A stretch of 52,658 nt of DNA from Dehalococcoidia bacterium (GTDB taxonomy: Bacteria > Chloroflexota > Dehalococcoidia > GIF9 > UBA5629), in the NCBI GenBank assembly GCA_011170325.1, contig DUEX01000015.1:1-52658 (forward strand), in the 5' to 3' direction. Below, one piece after another: positions 6,571-17,164 of this stretch. Below the pieces are notes generated by a model that saw only the letters and a list, made by a program, of their open reading frames with translations, was not told where the DNA came from and did no database searches. The position numbers were made by a program, and so were the translations under genes. Each line of letters opens with the position of its first letter. The first letter of the stretch is position 1.

Positions 6571-7752
6571 ATGAAATTAATGATTATCGGGTTAGGACAA
6601 TGCGGTTCTCGGATTGCTGATGAGCTTGTTCGCCTAAATCGGCAGGCAGAGTCACATCGGCACACCAGTATAATTACTGGAGCCTTTGCCGTGAATACTG
6701 ACCAGGCTGACCTCACTGGCCTATCTTATATTGGTTCCGACTACATGCATCGTATACTTATCGGGGGGCGTAAGACCTGGGGACATGGTGTGGGCAAGGT
6801 AAACGAGATGGGTGCTGAACTGGCCAGAGAAGATGGTGATAAAGTGATCGATGCTATCAGGACTGCACCCGATTTCTACCACACCCATGCCTTCCTGCTC
6901 ATCGCCGGCAGTGCTGGCGGTACTGGGTCTGGCGCTATATCGATAATTTCCCAGATGCTCAAGGAGCGTTACATAGGCAAGCCAGTTTACGCCCTTGTCG
7001 TCCTCCCCTTTGAACACGAAGAGGTGGCTGAACTGAGAAGCGTCTACAACACGGCTACCTGTCTCAAGTCCATCCATCCGATAGCTGATGGTGTCTTCTT
7101 AGCTGATAATCAGCGCTATGTTAGAAAAGACGCCAGCATGGCAATGAACCTGCAGAAAATAAACAGACAAATCATCGAGCCCTTCTACGACCTGATGTGC
7201 GCCGGAGAGGTGACCAAATACAAGTATGTTGGTGCCAAGACGCTGGATGCTGGCGACATCATTCAATCCATCGATGGCTGGACGGCCCTCGGTGTTGGCA
7301 GAGCTGCAATATCGCGTGGTTTCCGCTCCCCCTGGGAACTGGCCAAGACCAGTTTTCGGGAAAAGAGTGGGGAAACTCTAAGAGCCATGCAAGCTATGGA
7401 CGCTGCTGTAAGTGAGCTTTCTATTGGCGTTAGTCCTGAAGATGCTGGTAGAGCTTTATATCTCGTATCGGCCCCGGCTAGGGAAATGAGTATGGATATT
7501 GCCAAAGGTCTGGGCGATTACCTCCGAGAGATGGCAGAAAACGCCGTAATCAGAGCCGGTGACTTCCCCGGAGACGGAGGTACTGTTGATGTCACCATAA
7601 TGTTTTCTCAGTTAGCCTTTGTCCAGAAGATAATGGACTACTATGACCGGGCTTCGGCCTTTGCCGTCAGCCAGAAGGAGCGGATAAAGGAAACTACCGG
7701 CCGACTCCGTGACATGGAGGATGCAGCTAAGGGGTTGCCCAGCTTAATCTAA
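6571..7752 (+). CDS. Tubulin/FtsZ-superfamily GTPase, CetZ-like (paralog 1, canonical motifs).
   Basis: 393 aa. T1 loop IGLGQCGSR. GHGVGKVNEMGAELA. Tubulin signature AGGTGSG at 6913..6933. LKERYIGKPVYALVVLPFE. FLADNQ. AGEV. T7-like LDAGDIIQSI. C-terminal IRAGDFPG. The overall order matches my recollection of haloarchaeal CetZ1. Confidence 0.85.
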   Translation: MKLMIIGLGQCGSRIADELVRLNRQAESHRHTSIITGAFAVNTDQADLTGLSYIGSDYMHRILIGGRKTWGHGVGKVNEMGAELAREDGDKVIDAIRTAPDFYHTHAFLLIAGSAGGTGSGAISIISQMLKERYIGKPVYALVVLPFEHEEVAELRSVYNTATCLKSIHPIADGVFLADNQRYVRKDASMAMNLQKINRQIIEPFYDLMCAGEVTKYKYVGAKTLDAGDIIQSIDGWTALGVGRAAISRGFRSPWELAKTSFREKSGETLRAMQAMDAAVSELSIGVSPEDAGRALYLVSAPAREMSMDIAKGLGDYLREMAENAVIRAGDFPGDGGTVDVTIMFSQLAFVQKIMDYYDRASAFAVSQKERIKETTGRLRDMEDAAKGLPSLI

Positions 7753-7788: not shown

Positions 7789-9150
7789 TCACTGCCCTTT
7801 AGCCTTTCGTGGCACATATTTGGCAGCAGCCTGAACGACCAGAGCTAGGCTCGTCAAGTAATCATCGTGTCCATCACTGGGGTCAACGAAGAAGTTAAGT
7901 GTCTGGTTGGGACGATAGACGCTCTTAGCTTTCTCTAGCTCAAACATAAGTTCCCTGTAATCCTGAGAGCCATCCTGTTTATACAGTTTTAGCCTGCCTG
8001 AATTGATGGCAGCCAGTAGGTCAAAACCTGCTTCTGACTTAGAGCTCTGAGTGAACTTAAACGGGATAACTTTGCTGCCCAGAGCCTGTCTCAAAAACGA
8101 GGTCACTGATTCACCAACGGCAGTAGCGTCAACTACAATCCGACTGCAACCCCAGACGTTCTTCAGGATATCCACCAACTGGGGGCAAAGGTCCGAGTGC
8201 CTCCTTCCCACCCAGACGTAGTGTTCAACGATGTTGATATGCGGGTCTTTAGTTATTGAGTCGCCTGCTGGGCTTATGACCTCAGCAATGGTGATGACGG
8301 TAGCGTCCCTACCCGGTCTAGCTAAGATTTGCTCCTCGACCACCTCGGACTCGCCAGCCAAGTCGATGCCGGCGGCATAGACTTTCGATGCTTGATGACG
8401 CCGATGAGCTCGTGCATGCTCACCAAGCATCTGAGCTATCTGTTGGCTGGATAGAAAGCCACCGCCGCCACGGATAGGTAGCAAGGCGTATTGAGTTCTG
8501 AAAAGTGGGTGGCTCTCGCCCAGCCTGTCCCGCTCAGCTTCAACAAAAGCACAATATTCAGGATTATGCTTGGCCACTTCCTGCCAATCATATCTGAAAT
8601 GCCTTTTTATACCATCCTTCCTCTCTAGTTCAAGGTTGGTCTGCTTTATCTCCTCAAGCAGGGTGTTATCGTCCCAGGTAGTCCCGTAGTGGACAGTAGT
8701 CACGTTGAAGGCTGAGCCCATAGGTCTGAACTCTTTAGTGTATTTTTCTTTGGCTACATCTTGGGACTCGTCGATCTCCAAGAGGATGTCGGCGGTATGC
8801 CCGACCACCGAAGATGACTCCTCAGCCGATAGAAAAACCTGACGGGCCGCCCCCAGCTTGACGATATAGCCCATCTCAGTTGACCAGATGCCGGCGAAAC
8901 CAAAATCGTCAAGTCTTTCCTTCAGCCTCATAATCGATATCACCGTCTGAGGTTTGAAGGTTGGAGAGCACTTAACAGCACTGCCACCCTTGGCCATGAA
9001 CATTGTTAACAGTAGTACCTCAAGCTGCGCTGATAGCTCATTCTTGCCTCCCTGGCGGGCTATCTCTACAGAAAAAGTCAAGCCTTTCTTTTCTTGAATG
9101 CTCTCTAGGATGGCTTTGGCGACTTCTTGCTGGTACGGTCTTAGTTTCAT
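7789..9150 (-). CDS. Phage terminase large subunit-like protein (ATPase plus RNase H-like nuclease).
   Basis: 453 aa. Walker A-like ARQGGKNE, Walker B LLEIDESQD, and nuclease acidic motifs AAGIDLAG, VVDATAVG and GHDDYLTS. Confidence 0.75.
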   Translation of the reverse strand: MKLRPYQQEVAKAILESIQEKKGLTFSVEIARQGGKNELSAQLEVLLLTMFMAKGGSAVKCSPTFKPQTVISIMRLKERLDDFGFAGIWSTEMGYIVKLGAARQVFLSAEESSSVVGHTADILLEIDESQDVAKEKYTKEFRPMGSAFNVTTVHYGTTWDDNTLLEEIKQTNLELERKDGIKRHFRYDWQEVAKHNPEYCAFVEAERDRLGESHPLFRTQYALLPIRGGGGFLSSQQIAQMLGEHARAHRRHQASKVYAAGIDLAGESEVVEEQILARPGRDATVITIAEVISPAGDSITKDPHINIVEHYVWVGRRHSDLCPQLVDILKNVWGCSRIVVDATAVGESVTSFLRQALGSKVIPFKFTQSSKSEAGFDLLAAINSGRLKLYKQDGSQDYRELMFELEKAKSVYRPNQTLNFFVDPSDGHDDYLTSLALVVQAAAKYVPRKAKGQ

Positions 9151-9485
9151 CTAATTAGCGACTTGACTCCGAGGGGTATGGCTATCTCAGTCAACACCTT
9201 AGTGATAGCTTCCTTAAGAGATTTCTTCTGTTCTTTACTGATGTTGTAGCGGGTCTTGACAAGCCGGGCAATGGTGTTGGCAGCCTCGAGGTGGAGGTCA
9301 AGCCTGTCTGGCTCTTTGCCAATGAGTTCGCAGAGCTTGACTCTTAAGATGGCGATCTCCTCATCAATGCCTTCTATGCCCCAGGCCTGCTCAAGCTGGA
9401 GCTTCTCAGCCTCGTCAAGAACCTGACTGTAGAAGCCGTGCTTCCTTGCGTTCTGATTGCCTTTTGGTGCGCCTCTTTTTGCCAT
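9147..9485 (-). CDS. Putative terminase small subunit-like protein.
   Basis: ATG 9485 gives MAKRGAPKGNQNARKHGFYS..., an N-terminal GNxNAxKHG motif common in phage small-terminase-like proteins. Its stop overlaps the terL ATG (ATGA at 9147..9150). The ORF is open from TTG 9515. Confidence 0.5.
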   Translation of the reverse strand: MAKRGAPKGNQNARKHGFYSQVLDEAEKLQLEQAWGIEGIDEEIAILRVKLCELIGKEPDRLDLHLEAANTIARLVKTRYNISKEQKKSLKEAITKVLTEIAIPLGVKSLIR

Positions 9486-9663
9486 TCTGCTTTGCCTTGA
9501 TGAGCCCAAAGACAAGGATGTGGGCAGCTAGGTCATACCTCTCCTCTTCCAAAGCTATTTTCAACAACTTCACCATAATCAAATATAATTCTAGCACTAA
9601 TGTTCTATTAAGACAAGCCGATATTGTCGTTCCAGCCTTGAGTTAGGAAGTCGTAGCGCCACC

Positions 9664-11578: not shown

Positions 11579-12223
11579 TCAAACCTGTCTGAACAAGGTG
11601 CCAAAGAAAGCGACTATTTTCTCCGCCATGGCTACCTCATATCCCCACCAGAAATGGTCAGCCCCGGAGACAAGCTCAAATTGCTTCGGTTCAGCCGCCT
11701 CTCGATTAATTAGCTCCGCTTTCTGAAGCGAAACCACAAAATCCCCAGCCCCACAGATTATGAGCTTAGGCTTAGCACAGTCCTTTAGCTGGGATACTTG
11801 TGATAGTTCAAGCGGCGGAGAAACAAGTGCCACCGCCTTAACCCGGTCATCACTACAGGCAACCGCCGAAGCCACAGTGGCGCCAAAAGAATAGCCTAAT
11901 AATCCCACTTTATCTACACCCACTTCAGGCTGGGAAATTAGCCAACTTATAGCTGCCGCCACATCCTCTTGCTCATCAACACCGCCGCCAAAACTGCCTC
12001 CGCTGCCTCCTACTCCACGGAAGTTAAACATGAAGGCAATTATAGACCTGTTAACCAGAGTCGAACCCACCGCTAGTATAACATTGTTATCCATTGAGCC
12101 ACCATAAAGAGGATGAGGATGGCACAGGACTACCGCTGGAAAAACTCCGTCGCCCTCAGGGAAATAGCAAGCCCCTTCCAGAGTAAGATTGCCACAAGGG
12201 AAGGATATGTCGCTCCGTCTCAG
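11579..12223 (-). CDS. Alpha/beta hydrolase (HPHPxxGG...GxSxG type) with a probable non-canonical CTG start.
   Basis: The listed ORF starts at ATG 12094, but the conserved N-terminus LTLEGACYFPEGDGVFPAVVLCHPHPLYGGSMDNNV continues in frame upstream. The nucleophile elbow is GYSFG. Between the TAA at 12239..12241 and 12094 there is no in-frame ATG, GTG or TTG. CTG 12223 overlaps the rarA stop. Confidence 0.8.
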   Translation of the reverse strand: MRRSDISFPCGNLTLEGACYFPEGDGVFPAVVLCHPHPLYGGSMDNNVILAVGSTLVNRSIIAFMFNFRGVGGSGGSFGGGVDEQEDVAAAISWLISQPEVGVDKVGLLGYSFGATVASAVACSDDRVKAVALVSPPLELSQVSQLKDCAKPKLIICGAGDFVVSLQKAELINREAAEPKQFELVSGADHFWWGYEVAMAEKIVAFFGTLFRQV

Positions 12224-13590
12224 CCTTTCTTCTCCCTTTTATTCCCCCACCAGGCTTTAAGTCTAGTATTTACTTCCTTTTCATAGCCCTGTTCACTGGG
12301 GAAATAATAACGCTTCTCCCGGAGCGAATTCGGCAGGTTCTGTTGCTCTACAAAATGTCCGGGGTAGTTGTGAGCATATTTGTAGCCTTTCCCATATTCC
12401 AGCTCACGCATCAATCGGGTAACTGGATTGCGCAGGTGAAGTGGTACCGGCTCATTTCGACTTCGCTCAACATCTTGCTGCACCCGAGAGTAGGCGTCAT
12501 ATAAGGAATTGCTTTTCGGAGCCGTAGCCAGATAGGTCACCGCCTCAGCCAGAGCCAGATTGCCCTCAGGCATACCAACAAAATGTGCTGCTTGTTGAGC
12601 TGCTACAGCCACCATCAACGCTTGAGGATCAGCCATACCTACATCTTCAGAAGCAAAGCGCACCAGACGTCGGGCAATATAAAGAGGGTCCTCTCCAGCC
12701 TCAAGCATTCGCCCTAGCCAATATAAAGCTGCGTCGGGGGCTGAACCACGCAGCGACTTATGAAGCGCTGAGATAAAGTCATAATGCTGGTCACCGCTTT
12801 TATCATAAAGCAAAGCCCGTTGCTGTAGCGCTTCCTCAATACTTGTCAGGCTGAGCCGACGATACCCATCAGCCTCAGGCGAACTAGCCAAAGTTGCCAT
12901 CTCCAAGGCATTGAGTGCTACCCGAGCATCACCATTAGACATAACAACCAAATGCCTTAGAGCCTCTCCGGCTAGCTCCACCTTCAATTTCCCTATCCCC
13001 CTCCCCCTATCTTCGATAGCTCGTTCAACGATAGAACGAATCTCTATATCAGTTAACGAATTCAAAGTAAATACTCGGCACCGCGAGAGCAAAGGAGAGA
13101 TAACCTCAAAGGAAGGATTCTCTGTGGTAGCGCCGATGAGAATTACCACGCCATTTTCCACAAAGGGCAATATCGCATCCTGTTGAGCTTTATTAAATCG
13201 ATGGATCTCATCAATAAACAGGATAGTTCGTTGCCCAGATAGCTTGAGCCTATGCTTAGCTTCATCAACGATGCGACGCAGGTCAGCCACACCGGCACTA
13301 ACTGCACTCAGTGGACTAAAATGTGACTTGGTGATGCTAGCAATAACATAAGCCAGAGTTGTTTTGCCACTACCAGGCGGGCCCCAAAAAATCAGCGACG
13401 GCAACTGGTCTGCCTCGATACATTTTCTGAGCACCCGCCCCTCGCCTACCAGATGCTCCTGCCCCATAAACTCAGCAAAATTTAGCGGCCGTATTCTGGC
13501 AGCTAAAGGCATATCACCGGGCAGCTCAGAGTCTACCCTAGATATTGCTTTGCCCTTCGATTCCAGCTGATTTAAATCGAAAAGAGTCAT
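12220..13590 (-). CDS. rarA: Replication-associated recombination protein A (AAA+ ATPase MgsA/RarA)
   Basis: 456 aa. Walker A FWGPPGSGKTTLA, Walker B LFIDEIHRFNK and a C-terminal MgsA_C region (HYDFISALHKSLRGS). Confidence 0.95.
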   Translation of the reverse strand: MTLFDLNQLESKGKAISRVDSELPGDMPLAARIRPLNFAEFMGQEHLVGEGRVLRKCIEADQLPSLIFWGPPGSGKTTLAYVIASITKSHFSPLSAVSAGVADLRRIVDEAKHRLKLSGQRTILFIDEIHRFNKAQQDAILPFVENGVVILIGATTENPSFEVISPLLSRCRVFTLNSLTDIEIRSIVERAIEDRGRGIGKLKVELAGEALRHLVVMSNGDARVALNALEMATLASSPEADGYRRLSLTSIEEALQQRALLYDKSGDQHYDFISALHKSLRGSAPDAALYWLGRMLEAGEDPLYIARRLVRFASEDVGMADPQALMVAVAAQQAAHFVGMPEGNLALAEAVTYLATAPKSNSLYDAYSRVQQDVERSRNEPVPLHLRNPVTRLMRELEYGKGYKYAHNYPGHFVEQQNLPNSLREKRYYFPSEQGYEKEVNTRLKAWWGNKREKKG

Positions 13591-14690
13591 GTTACCTCTC
13601 TCTTTAACGTTTGAGCTACCCTAACCGCTTTATCATAATAATTCTTAACCTCTTCCACATAGGTCAGTGCTGATGCGACCACGGTAACTTGGGCAAAATC
13701 TCTAGCTCCGTAGAAATCACCACCTCTTATTTCAGCATTATGTGCTAACTCCCGCAGGCGATTTCCCAAAGCTTTGGTCATATCAACATTGGCTTCCTTA
13801 GCTGGGACTGAGAGAAGATATAGGGCTTTGCCAGCATCCTCCAATTTGCAATCAATCGAGAACCGGCCCAAAGCTGCACTCATTGCCTCCATGGCTTTAA
13901 GTGTTTCCGAGCCCTTCTCCTGAAAGCCCTGCATCTTTCTCCAAGGAAATCTTGACACCGAAAATTGTGTCTTCCCAACGCCTATCGCTGTCCAGCTTGC
14001 TAAAGTTTGTACCATGTCACCAACGCCTAGTGCCCACACCCCAACATATCCTGAGCCAACCACTTCGCTAGCACAAAGAAGGTCATAGAATGGAAGGGCT
14101 ATCTCTTTATTCAAACTGCCCATATTATCAATTGATGTCGCATTTCCTCCCACTCTGAACCTCTCATTATCCACCAAGAACACAGCGTCAGCTACCTTAT
14201 GAATAGACTTGAGGCAGATAGCCGTATTATAAACACATTGCGGCTCGGTTGCCTCAGGCTCAAAGGGGAGAATGATGAGTGCATAGACCGGTTTGCCTAC
14301 ATAACGCTCCTTAAGTTGTTGAGCCATTACCGGAACTCCGCCAGAACCAAGGCTTCCAGCAGCACCAGCGATAAATAAGAAAGCGTCTGTCTCAAAAAAC
14401 TCACCCGGTCTCATAGCTGCTATTACCCGGTCACCTTCCTCACTCATAAGTGCAGCGCCAGCTTCAGTAGACTTGCCGTCACCTCCAAGGGAACCACGAA
14501 TAAAGATAGGCTGTAGCCACTCAGGCCCAGACTTAGTCAATACTGCTAAACTAGCCTGGTCATTATTAACCGCATAGGCACGGGTAACTATGCTGACATG
14601 TCGTTCAACTTTTGCTCTTTTATTTAACCGAGCAAATTCACTAGCCAGCCTGCAGCCACAATCACCAAGACCAATAACTAGCAACTTCAT
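13587..14690 (-). CDS. Tubulin/FtsZ-superfamily protein, CetZ-like (paralog 2, degenerate nucleotide-binding motifs).
   Basis: 367 aa, collinear with the 6571..7752 product: MKLLVIGLGDCGCR, LKERYVGKPVYALIILPFE, VYNTAICLKSIH, FLVDNERF, PFYDLLCASEV, GSETLKAMEAMSAA, EDAGKALYLLSVPA, IRGGDF. The signature is AGSLGSG (14340..14360) instead of AGGTGSG. Confidence 0.8.
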   Translation of the reverse strand: MKLLVIGLGDCGCRLASEFARLNKRAKVERHVSIVTRAYAVNNDQASLAVLTKSGPEWLQPIFIRGSLGGDGKSTEAGAALMSEEGDRVIAAMRPGEFFETDAFLFIAGAAGSLGSGGVPVMAQQLKERYVGKPVYALIILPFEPEATEPQCVYNTAICLKSIHKVADAVFLVDNERFRVGGNATSIDNMGSLNKEIALPFYDLLCASEVVGSGYVGVWALGVGDMVQTLASWTAIGVGKTQFSVSRFPWRKMQGFQEKGSETLKAMEAMSAALGRFSIDCKLEDAGKALYLLSVPAKEANVDMTKALGNRLRELAHNAEIRGGDFYGARDFAQVTVVASALTYVEEVKNYYDKAVRVAQTLKREVT

Positions 14691-14693
14691 ATG

Positions 14694-15209
14694 CTACTTA
14701 TATCTCCTCACCTGAAAACGGTATAGCTTAATCGGTTCGTCGCCTGATATGCCAGCTTTAGCTCGGCAGATATCAATCTGCTCGTCTACAGTATCCACGC
14801 CTTCAAGGCCAGGCAGCAAAAGTCCTCGCCTAAACCCACACTCTACAATCACGCCATACTTCTTAGGGTCAAGCCGGTCAATGCTATCCACCGGCTCAGG
14901 CTTGGTGAGTATATCTATGCTATATTCCAAATTATCTAACTCAGAAGCCGCAACCGGCGTAAAGCGAGGGTCCTCAGTAGCCGAACTAATAGCATTGGCA
15001 ACGATTTCCTCGGCTACATTCGCCCTAGTTGGCTCAAAGGTGCCAATACAGCCCCTTAGTTCACCATGTTTCTTAATGGACACAAAGACACCAGCTCTTT
15101 CCTTCATTTCAGCAGTAAGCTCCTCTGCTTTGAGCACCCTGCCCTCGCCAATATAACTTTCCACCGCCTCTTTAGCTAACTTTACTATTGGGTGAAGCTC
15201 CTTTTCCAT
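14694..15209 (-). CDS. AMMECR1 domain protein (AmmeMemoRadiSam system protein A)
   Basis: 171 aa with the [19 protein letters not shown] motif typical of AMMECR1. Confidence 0.9.
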
Positions 15210-15210
15210 G

Positions 15211-16029
15211 TCACTGCCTCCTTCCCCCCTTTATTATTATACCAGCGTAGCCGACTACGCTGGTATAATCACCCGATGTGTCACCACTTGTCTGATATCT
15301 AACTAGTTCTGCCTCTCTCCCTCCTAACTCCTTAGAGGCAGAAATAAGGCTAACCGCTGGTGCATAGCCACACATCGATATATCCAACTCCTCAACTCGC
15401 TTCAAGAGCTCATCCTCATTTAAATCCAGTATGGCTTCGATAGCCTGAGCATCTTTCCTCTGAGCAGTTTCCTGCGGTTCATAGTGGGTCATGTCACTGC
15501 TGGCTATGATTACAGTCCCCCGACCTAATCCCTTAATAGCCCTGGCTATTCCCTTGCCGATTTCTTTATAGGCAGCACCGGCCGAGTGGGAGAGAACGAT
15601 AGGCACTATCTCGATGTCTGGCTTGAAATACTGTAAAAATGGAACCTGAACCTCAATGGAGTGCTCATATTGATGTGCCATATAGTCTTCTTCTAAGTAG
15701 CTAGATATAGCTAAAATCTGCTTTCCAAGTTCCGAGTCAATTTCTACCTCACCCAAAGGTGTTTTCCATCTGCCTTTCGTCATGATACTAAAAGGTTTTC
15801 CTCTCCCAGTGTGATTAGGACCTAAGATGACAAAGGTGTCCCTAAATTTGATTCTAGATATAACAGCCCCAGCTACTGGCCCTGAGTAGATATATCCAGC
15901 ATGAGGCGAAACCAGTCCGACTACCTCGACTTTCTCTGCCTTCTCATCAACCAATTCTCTAATCTGTGCCCTAAGCTGGTCGGGTAAGCCCGGGTAAAAT
16001 TGGCCAGCGACAACTGGATTCCTAATCAT
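15211..16029 (-). CDS. MEMO1-family protein (AmmeMemoRadiSam system protein B)
   Basis: 272 aa. N-terminus [14 protein letters not shown], with [10 protein letters not shown] and the DMTHY His/Asp metal site pattern. Confidence 0.9.
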
Positions 16030-16064: not shown

Positions 16065-17090
16065 TTAACCAACCGTCTTAATATTAAGTTCAGCTCCGCA
16101 AAACTTACACTTTGAACCGCCAATGCCCACCACTTGAGCATCGTAGCCAAATCTTCTAATGACCACTTTGCCACAAGAATAACAAACAGTATTCTCTCCG
16201 TCATGACCAGGGATATTGCCCAAATAGACAAAGCGCAACCCTGCTCTTTTGCCAATATCATAAGCCTTCTCCAGGCTAGCTATTGGGGTCGGCGGCAAGT
16301 GAGTCAGGTAATGATGAGGATAAAACCGGGTCACATGCCAAGGAGTCAGCTCACCCAGTTCATCCCGAATCCAAATAGCAATACCCTCCAGCTGCTCCTC
16401 ATCATCATTCATCGTCGGAATCACATTGGTCACCACCTCGACATGCATCCCCCATTTCACTTGAGCCCGTTTAGCCACCTCGAGAATTCCTCGCCACCGG
16501 GAAATTTTGGCTAAGTCGCGATATAAAGCATCAGAAAAACCTTTGATATCAACCCGCCAAGCATCGAGATAAGGCCCGATAGTATCCAAGGCCTCCGATG
16601 TAAGATAGCCATTAGTAACATAAACACTGTAGAGCCCATCTTTCTTAGCCAGCTTCGCTGAATCCAGGGTATATTCAAACCAGATACTTGGCTCATTATA
16701 AGTCCAGGCAATGCCACCACAATTATGCTGCTTGGTTAATTTCACAGCTTCCTGAGGCGAAATTCTTCGTGAACCCCTCACCATTTCGGCTGGCTCCTCA
16801 ACACAAGAGATCTCCCAATTCTGGCAATGCTTACAATGAAAATTGCACCCCCAAGTACCTAAAGAGAAAACCAAGCTCCCTGGAAAGAAGTGGAACAGGG
16901 GTTTCTTCTCGATAGGGTCAACCGCTACTGACGAGGCCTCAGCATAGTTAAGGATACGAAGAATGCCATCATTATTTCGACGCACTCGACAAACACCAAA
17001 TTTGCCCGGATTAATAACACAACGCCACTGGCAAACATTGCAACGTACTCTAGACCCAGGAAGCTTGTCGTAAAGTATCGCCTCAGACAT
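16065..17090 (-). CDS. AmmeMemoRadiSam system radical SAM enzyme
   Basis: 341 aa. N-terminal Cys cluster CNVCQWRC...CRVR, radical SAM CNFHCKHCQNW, and a C-terminal zinc-ribbon-like CYSCG...CKFCG. Confidence 0.9.
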   Translation of the reverse strand: MSEAILYDKLPGSRVRCNVCQWRCVINPGKFGVCRVRRNNDGILRILNYAEASSVAVDPIEKKPLFHFFPGSLVFSLGTWGCNFHCKHCQNWEISCVEEPAEMVRGSRRISPQEAVKLTKQHNCGGIAWTYNEPSIWFEYTLDSAKLAKKDGLYSVYVTNGYLTSEALDTIGPYLDAWRVDIKGFSDALYRDLAKISRWRGILEVAKRAQVKWGMHVEVVTNVIPTMNDDEEQLEGIAIWIRDELGELTPWHVTRFYPHHYLTHLPPTPIASLEKAYDIGKRAGLRFVYLGNIPGHDGENTVCYSCGKVVIRRFGYDAQVVGIGGSKCKFCGAELNIKTVG

Positions 17091-17135: not shown

Positions 17136-17164
17136 ATTATAGTCAGTCACTAGACAACGCTCAA
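17136..17164 (-). promoter_or_regulatory. Candidate promoter for the radical SAM-to-hydrolase operon.
   Basis: The minus strand reads TTGAGC, 17 nt, TATAAT. A second candidate is an extended -10 TGgTATAAT (reverse complement of 17113..17121). Confidence 0.3.

Follow-up and report, generated by a model that had tools for sequence, protein, structure and literature searches.

The stretch of DNA analysed here, a contig of 52,658 nucleotides from a Dehalococcoidia bacterium (DUEX01000015.1 of the GenBank assembly GCA_011170325.1; hereafter the window), encodes two proteins that belong to the tubulin superfamily and resemble the archaeal CetZ proteins. The first of these, P1 (6571..7752, plus strand, 393 amino acids), is a canonical CetZ-like paralog with intact T1, T3, T4 and T7 loops and a conserved C-terminal tail. 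The second, P2 (13587..14690, minus strand, 367 amino acids), is a CetZ-like paralog in which the tail is gone and the nucleotide pocket rewritten; P1 is its presumed partner and parent. The degeneracy of P2 is a property of a whole orthologous clade and not a strain-specific decay: across this clade the nucleotide face is asymmetrically remodelled, the T7 acid is preserved and so, for the most part, is the C-terminal domain, and P2 is a living gene under purifying selection. We are confident that the P2 pocket, as read from its sequence, is remodelled and non-canonical. Very probably P2 no longer binds or senses guanosine triphosphate (GTP) in the canonical way, because its T1 loop carries an aspartate and its T4 loop a hydrophobic residue, T3 has been cut out and T5 is shortened. 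The reading that we favour, and to which we give about an even chance, is that P2 serves as a selection-maintained pseudo-GTPase partner of P1, dead on its nucleotide face but live on its T7 face, with which it would act on P1 filaments.

Nucleotide-binding motifs of P2 and its clade

In tubulin and FtsZ, the loops T1, T3 and T4 hold the phosphates at the 'top' face of a subunit, and the T7 loop of the next subunit completes the active site. P2 retains the architecture of this superfamily, a GTPase-domain fold followed by a C-terminal domain, as seen both in its Pfam matches and in its AlphaFold2 model. Pfam Tubulin (PF00091) matches P1 with 104 bits and P2 with 74.4 bits (cut-off 33), and CetZ_C (PF21011) matches P1 with 52 bits and P2 with 31.2 bits over residues 191-356 (cut-off 21.6), whereas the NCBIfam model TIGR00065 for ftsZ gives P2 21.5 bits against a cut-off of 295, and P1 is likewise far below this cut-off. 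Among PDB sequences searched with phmmer, P2 is closest to CetZ1 (4b46, 1.3e-27) and CetZ2 (4b45, 6.5e-18), with FtsZ reaching 2.4e-4 at best. The model of P2, built from an alignment of 60 sequences (predicted local distance difference test score 91.3, predicted template modelling score 0.91), likewise places CetZ1 4b46 and CetZ2 4b45 of Haloferax volcanii at ranks 1 and 2 among PDB folds in Foldseek (template modelling scores of 0.79-0.87), followed by TubZ and FtsZ; there are at least 500 PDB matches, and all those listed are CetZ, TubZ or FtsZ. P2 thus possesses a CetZ-type C-terminal domain and has CetZ proteins as its nearest characterised relatives. The name CetZ-like was chosen for it, as its bacterial host appears to lie outside the archaeal distribution and placement of the CetZ family; the host genome carries a true ftsZ on another contig, along with Rho and bacterial ribosomal genes.

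The two paralogs had been described from sequence as collinear and roughly 40-50% identical, and a formal pairwise alignment by BLASTP bore this out, with 49% of positions identical over 373 collinear columns (E 8e-119). The shared blocks listed in that sequence-only reading are real, apart from a slip in one of them, where P1 reads SGETL and P2 GSETL, and the differences that it listed in T1, T3, T4 and T7 are all found in their places. In T1, P2 reads GLGDCG (14655..14672, minus strand), with aspartate instead of the glutamine of the canonical GxGQ[AC]G, which P1 has as GLGQCG (6589..6606, plus strand). The gamma-phosphate loop of T3, GHGVG in the family, is shortened and variable, leaving GGDGKSTE (14463..14486, minus strand), which aligns as G-GDGKSTE with GHGVGKVNE of P1. 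In T4, AGSLGSG (14340..14360, minus strand) replaces AGGTGSG (6913..6933 in P1, plus strand), and P2 does not match the superfamily signature [SAG]GGTG[SAT]G. The T7 loop, LGVGD (14016..14030, minus strand), has lost its first aspartate and retains the second (D225), which aligns with E218 of CetZ1 in the phmmer alignment to 4b46; P1 reads LDAGD here, with D229 as the acid.

P2 ends about 21 residues before P1 and hence lacks the conserved tail of the latter, which ends in ..ETTGRLRDME.AAKGLPSLI (7690..7752, plus strand), is strongly conserved in P1 orthologs and includes two sites, P390 and L392, that are at least 90% conserved in the 56 canonical paralogs of the class. It is similar to the tails by which FtsZ and CetZ1 bind their partners. 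The sequence of P2 argues against GTP-dependent polymerisation of this protein and against a functional C-terminal tail.

P2 is found as intact DNA, free of insertions and deletions and with no difference within the motifs, in contigs from four public metagenome runs belonging to four studies, and the agreement of these contigs rules out an assembly artefact. Over the conserved S4-T4 stretch of P2 (14356-14394 of the window), short high-depth contigs of other organisms stack up. The loose ends of these contigs encode the canonical GGTGSG, which points to an abundance of canonical paralogs of relatives in the same marine sediment and seawater samples.

The P2 clade was delimited without reference to the motifs, by a maximum-likelihood tree (support 100/100) together with synteny, and was sampled through the 120 closest representatives of 90%-identity clusters out of 5.8 billion proteins. 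At the position of the T1 glutamine, these representatives have aspartate (109), asparagine (9) or lysine (2) and never glutamine; at that of the T4 threonine they have leucine (81), valine (20), phenylalanine (11) or isoleucine (8) and never threonine, and the glycine preceding it is a serine in 90 and remains glycine in only 3. In T3, 119 of the 120 have a deletion that removes the GHG. The second acid of T7 is kept throughout (aspartate in 118, glutamate in 2). The same pattern is seen in a class-wide alignment of 80 paralogs, which comprises 10 members of the P2 clade and 70 others. All 10 members have T1 as GxG[D/R/K]CG, T3 without GHGVG and T4 as G[S/C/N/T/F][L/I/V/F]GS[G/K/M], and all 70 others keep the T1 glutamine, 68 of them together with GGTGSG. 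The degenerate motifs proposed from sequence are therefore conserved in orthologs chosen by tree and synteny, and orthologs with a canonical GGTGSG, which the sequence-only reading had named as the sign of strain-specific decay, did not turn up, as 10 of 10 orthologs and 120 of 120 representatives are altered. Its suggestion that T7 is degenerate as well does not hold across the clade, in which the first aspartate persists in 86 of 120 and the second acid in every one.

The changes are unevenly distributed along the protein, as seen when the 107 columns with at least 90% conservation among the 56 canonical paralogs of the class were checked in 126 sequences of the P2 clade. Replacements and deletions cluster in the N-terminal, nucleotide-binding half (T1, T2, H2, S3, T3, H3, T4 and T5), where the replaced sites include Q10 (T1), T43 (T2), G117 and T118 (T4) and E154 (T5), the deleted sites include H72-G73-V74 (T3) and E150 (T5), and none of the five conserved T3 sites is kept. 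From T7 onward the sites are mostly retained (S7 5 of 5, H9 3 of 4, S9 3 of 5), and no T7 site is replaced.

Partly eroded GTP motifs (such as GGTAAG, GCGDCG, GLGLCG and GGTGSP/A) also occur in CetZ-like paralogs of Dehalococcoidia that lie outside the P2 clade; the eroded paralogs are at L067 2887-4098 (G116) and L065 204-1373 (G150), with the proteins P0007, P0010, P0011 and P0017. It therefore seems that the bacterial CetZ-like branch has given rise to degenerate copies on more than one occasion.

Orthology and selection

Among the 301 genomes of the class that were searched, P2-type genes are present in 8 of 8 genomes of the family to which the window belongs (f1, counting the window itself) and in 2 of 2 genomes of a second family (f3), each of these 10 genes standing in the context Memo-AMMECR1-P2-RarA. 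In a denser sample of the order, a P2-type best match was obtained in 28 of 28 genomes of f1, 3 of 3 of f3 and 1 of 1 of f80, and was absent from f2 (0 of 27) and f79 (0 of 2), so that P2 is confined to three families of one order. A second, P1-type match accompanies it in 30 of these 32 genomes, and the two others are 87% complete each. A scan of GTDB species genomes gave 38 loci, in named metagenome-assembled genomes of Dehalococcoidia or Chloroflexota, with the same six-gene order wherever the DNA reaches.

P1 orthologs are 80-85% identical across the family. For genome pairs with unsaturated synonymous divergence, the ratio of non-synonymous to synonymous substitution rates (dN/dS) is 0.06-0.27 for P2 versus 0.04-0.06 for P1, and in the same pairs the dN of P2 is about 3-4 times that of P1. 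The P2 clade branches in the same way as the P1-ortholog tree (f3 versus f1, with the same sub-groups) on paths that are about six times longer, which implies vertical inheritance of P2 together with P1 from a time before f1 and f3 split.

This faster evolution, about three- to sixfold relative to P1, and the loss of hallmark motifs would be expected of a functionless duplicate that is turning into a pseudogene and hitch-hikes on the transcription of its operon, which we consider extremely improbable. Full-length intact open reading frames are found in at least three families, in every genome with a P2-type match counted above, dN/dS is low, and both the new residue states and the C-terminal domain are conserved; pseudogene status is rejected by the substitution ratios and intact frames, and decay is effectively excluded. 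Broken copies occur only in three loci (L101, L109 and L111), in which neighbouring genes are broken too. In these loci operon genes are split into 2-3 pieces each, namely those for the radical SAM enzyme, Memo and RarA in L101, for the radical SAM enzyme, P2 and RarA in L109, and for P2 and RarA in L111. Because the neighbours are affected as well, these breaks look like assembly indels rather than real pseudogenes.

P2 as a candidate partner of P1

At the level of sequence and model, P2 has the features that define a pseudo-GTPase, namely a retained fold, lost nucleotide-binding residues and ongoing selection. The pairing of a pseudo-GTPase with a canonical subunit, as raised in the sequence-only reading, fits the conserved change of the pocket, the purifying selection and the P1 match in 30 of 32 genomes; the heterodimer analogy that came with it is loose, as set out below. 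We favour P1 as the partner because the nucleotide face has been rewritten, the T7 acid and the C-terminal domain have been kept, and nearly all P2 genomes have a P1 match. That P2 acts through P1 is a tentative part of this reading, which we place slightly below an even chance.

P1 was duplicated locally before the split of f1 and f3, and the copy landed between AMMECR1 and RarA. In this copy the phosphate-contacting glutamine of T1 was exchanged for aspartate and the threonine of the T4 GGTGSG for a bulky hydrophobic residue, the gamma-phosphate loop of T3 was excised, T5 was shortened and the C-terminal tail was lost, with the 'bottom' face (the catalytic acid of T7, H8 and the C-terminal domain) staying conserved. 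In the mechanism that we propose, such a protein could use its T7 face to dock where a P1 subunit or filament exposes its GTP, might complete the active site of P1 there, and would present no nucleotide face to the next subunit. P2 would then be either a cap or terminator working in sub-stoichiometric amounts or the inactive half of a heterodimer, and the outcome would be a P1 polymer whose length or turnover is tuned by P2; we infer both the loss of GTP binding and the contact between P2 and P1. In CetZ1, E218 is the catalytic T7 residue, and E218A results in hyperstable polymers, a single change in the T4 signature, G108S, makes polymers unstable and the protein non-functional, and function requires the C-terminal tail (bioRxiv 10.1101/2024.04.08.588506).

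Several observations weigh against this reading. The first aspartate of T7 has been lost in 34 of the 120 clade representatives, including P2 of the window, and because of this T7 is less constrained in the P2 clade than it is in canonical members; the second acid may have been retained for structural reasons. The glycine scaffold of T1 and T4 (G7, G9, G12, G112 and G115, together with S116) is conserved in the P2 clade, and so are N155, D174 and N175, at positions homologous to guanine contacts. The pocket is thus rewritten rather than decayed, and it might still hold a nucleotide or another ligand. Finally, P2 is closely coupled to AMMECR1 and RarA, and its true partners could be the proteins of its operon and not P1.

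A pocket that still binds a nucleotide or other ligand is the main rival. P2 would then be a divergent, active CetZ paralog, a GTPase, possibly slow or locked in the diphosphate-bound (GDP) state, with a non-canonical pocket and homopolymers of its own, comparable to the multiple CetZs of haloarchaea. Besides the invariant or nearly invariant pocket residues just named, this explanation can draw on the T7 catalytic acid present in every representative, on the confident fold prediction and on the conservation of the new states themselves (GxGDCG in 109 of 120, and mostly serine-leucine in T4), which suggests that the pocket is in use. It has to account, however, for three phosphate-contacting elements that have changed together and non-conservatively, by a negative charge in T1, by L, V, F or I plus serine in T4 and by deletion in T3; a milder, single T4 change, G108S, already cripples CetZ1 (bioRxiv 10.1101/2024.04.08.588506), and none of the clade members reverts to the canonical state. 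We consider this rival unlikely.

The archaeal CetZ proteins (CetZ1 4b46, CetZ2 4b45 and that of Methanosaeta, 3zid) are its closest sequences and folds and share with it the combination of Pfam Tubulin and CetZ_C, and the catalytic E218 of CetZ1 is aligned with its T7 acid; unlike them, P2 is bacterial, its GTP-binding residues in T1, T3 and T4 are replaced and its tail is absent. Within the Dehalococcoidia, P2 is nested in the same branch as the canonical CetZ-like proteins of the P1 type and forms a 100/100 clade with the P1 genes of the order, whereas the P1-type proteins have GxGQCG, GHGVG, GGTGSG and xDxGD, end in a conserved tail and are slow to evolve (dN/dS about 0.04). Alpha/beta-tubulin and BtubA/B resemble P1 and P2 in being ancient duplicates with unequal subunits, in which the T7 of one subunit acts on the nucleotide of the other. 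In those pairs, however, each of the two subunits binds GTP and it is in T7 that they differ, one subunit lacking the T7 acid, whereas P1 and P2 both keep it (D229 and D225) and one pocket has been rewritten; the alpha/beta-tubulin or BtubA/B logic invoked in the sequence-only reading is accordingly a loose one. Beta-tubulin has a lysine at the catalytic position of T7. The putative pairing of P1 and P2, deduced from genomic co-occurrence, need not be an obligate dimer.

The nearest mechanistic analogue is provided by FtsZ interface mutants, which combine one working and one dead longitudinal face, as proposed for P2. Engineered mutants of this kind reportedly poison or cap FtsZ filaments at sub-stoichiometric levels, as is said of work by Redick in 2005 and Du in 2018. 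Those mutants are laboratory point mutants, whereas P2 would be their counterpart in nature, conserved and encoded by a gene of its own.

Operon context, origin and meaning

As had been noted from the sequence alone, P2 lies within an operon, a compact block on the minus strand in which it takes the fourth place, starting 3 nucleotides after the stop of AMMECR1 and overlapping with its stop the start of RarA in ATGA. The block begins with the radical SAM enzyme of the AmmeMemoRadiSam system (16065..17090; TIGR04337, 293.9 bits), followed by Memo, the AmmeMemoRadiSam protein B (15211..16029; TIGR04336, 324 bits), and, directly upstream of P2, by AMMECR1, the AmmeMemoRadiSam protein A (14694..15209; TIGR04335, 142.8 bits, and Pfam AMMECR1), all three of which pass the NCBIfam cut-offs. 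Downstream of P2 lie the AAA+ ATPase RarA/MgsA (12220..13590; Pfam MgsA_C, AAA_assoc_2 and AAA) and, as the last of the six genes, an alpha/beta hydrolase (11579..12238; Pfam Peptidase_S15, DLH and Abhydrolase_1 in the extended frame), all genes of the block being on the minus strand. The best promoter-like site, TTGAGC-17-TATAAT (17136..17164, minus strand), is a consensus match only and lies upstream of the radical SAM gene. Co-expression of P2 with the enzymes and RarA is predicted from this old and conserved position.

P2 is a local duplicate of P1 that was inserted, 3-7 kb away, into a pre-existing AMMECR1-RarA junction, and the duplication predates the split of f1 and f3. We conclude this because P2, the P1 orthologs of f1 and f3 and the P1-like genes of f2 form one 100/100 clade with a three-way split, and because they share a syntenic block in which the AMMECR1-RarA junction also exists without P2. 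Across the order, this block runs CoaE, rSAM-(Memo)-AMMECR1-[P2]-RarA-(hydrolase)-(PhoU_div-PHO4)-TerS-like-TerL-like-P1-TIG protein, where rSAM denotes the radical SAM enzyme. In f2 the block lacks P2, AMMECR1 being followed directly by RarA (L115, L141 and L142), and the junction is also found in more distant families (L120 and L138). The absence of P2 from f2 is compatible with loss or with an original lack, the split remaining three-way even in a careful tree.

The conserved order of these genes suggests a second rival, according to which P2 works with its operon neighbours and not with P1, as a scaffold for or target of the AmmeMemoRadiSam enzymes and/or RarA. The order rSAM-Memo-AMMECR1-P2-RarA-hydrolase is found in the 38 loci, as far as their DNA reaches, and in all sampled P2 genomes; the short upstream gap and the downstream overlap point in the same direction, and the lost C-terminal tail and relaxed GTP loops fit a changed job. 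Since P2 was inserted into an older junction, however, the operon position alone is no proof of a functional link to AmmeMemoRadiSam. Relatives without P2 have AMMECR1 and RarA directly adjacent (L115, L138, L141 and L142), and synteny across the order extends over the entire block, with P1 lying a few kb off, which explains the position by local duplication. AMMECR1 is found in 120 of the 301 class genomes, nearly all of them without P2, and P2 is thus no regular component of the three-gene AmmeMemoRadiSam system. Nor does Memo co-vary with P2: f2 lacks Memo in the operon yet carries it elsewhere in the genome, and co-variation was rejected on this ground. The role of substrate, which the sequence-only reading had offered, finds no support, as the adjacency of the radical SAM enzyme, AMMECR1 and RarA exists without P2 and P2 was inserted by local duplication of P1. 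P2 has no glycyl-radical-type motif, and its RGGDF segment is family-wide; a glycyl-radical-type substrate of a PFL-activase-like radical SAM enzyme was rejected, as P2 has no RVxG[FWY]-like site and shares RGGDF with canonical paralogs. Taken together, we regard a role with the operon neighbours instead of P1 as improbable. A further idea, that P2 is a physical link between a tubulin-like cytoskeleton and AmmeMemoRadiSam/RarA, whose enzymes would modify P2 or sit via P2 on P1 filaments, is highly speculative, and we give it little credence.

Several features of the surrounding genes were observed in passing. The hydrolase follows RarA in related loci as well; its Peptidase_S15 match starts at residue 24 of a frame extended upstream of the first ATG (12094-12238), orthologous hydrolase frames start about 30 nucleotides inside the end of RarA, and the true start probably lies upstream of the ATG at 12094, at a non-standard codon. 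In many Dehalococcoidia (e.g. L118, L124, L127, L129, L134 and L137) the AMMECR1 match lies within an open frame of 420-500 amino acids, which suggests AMMECR1 fused to another domain, presumed from length and position to be Memo. Adjoining P1, a pair of TerS-like and TerL-like genes (7789-9515, minus strand) is 65-80% identical in f1, f2 and f3, where it stands beside the P1 ortholog (L142, L143, L145, L074 and L080), and a TIG-domain gene usually lies on the other side of the P1 ortholog. The pair is no stray phage remnant; it seems to be a conserved neighbour of the CetZ-like gene that may have been domesticated.

The CetZ family has been termed archaea-specific (Brown & Duggin 2023), and accounts by CetZ specialists do not include a bacterial branch (PMC9856176), nor does the abstract of a further one (PMC11621097). 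CetZ-like sequences in Chloroflexota-Dehalococcoidia received a passing mention, in which neither the degenerate paralog nor the operon appears (Santana-Molina et al. 2023, PMC9871819). No description of the P2 clade was found in the literature searched, and pseudo-GTPase terms in combination with FtsZ or the tubulin superfamily did not occur among its best-ranked matches. In what was found on AmmeMemoRadiSam the name occurs and the function is not addressed. The genomic contexts of Memo have reportedly been linked, in work of Burroughs and colleagues from 2019, to the modification of nucleotide bases and isoprenoids.

P1 and P2 offer a natural experiment, a local and datable duplication in which the parent has stayed canonical and the daughter, lacking a nucleotide face and bearing the catalytic finger, has been retained over family-level divergence; the pair is also small and soluble-looking. 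The operon position provides a weak lead on the function of AmmeMemoRadiSam, and if P2 did link the cytoskeleton to AmmeMemoRadiSam/RarA, prokaryotes would have a counterpart to the unexplained link of MEMO1 with microtubule dynamics in eukaryotes, and there would be a first handle on the targets of Memo, AMMECR1 and the radical SAM enzyme. Should P2 indeed cap P1 or pair with it, natural evolution would have produced a regulator of a tubulin-like polymer that is encoded separately and has the same fold as the polymer itself, and P2 would represent an independent route to subunit asymmetry, unlike that of alpha/beta-tubulin.

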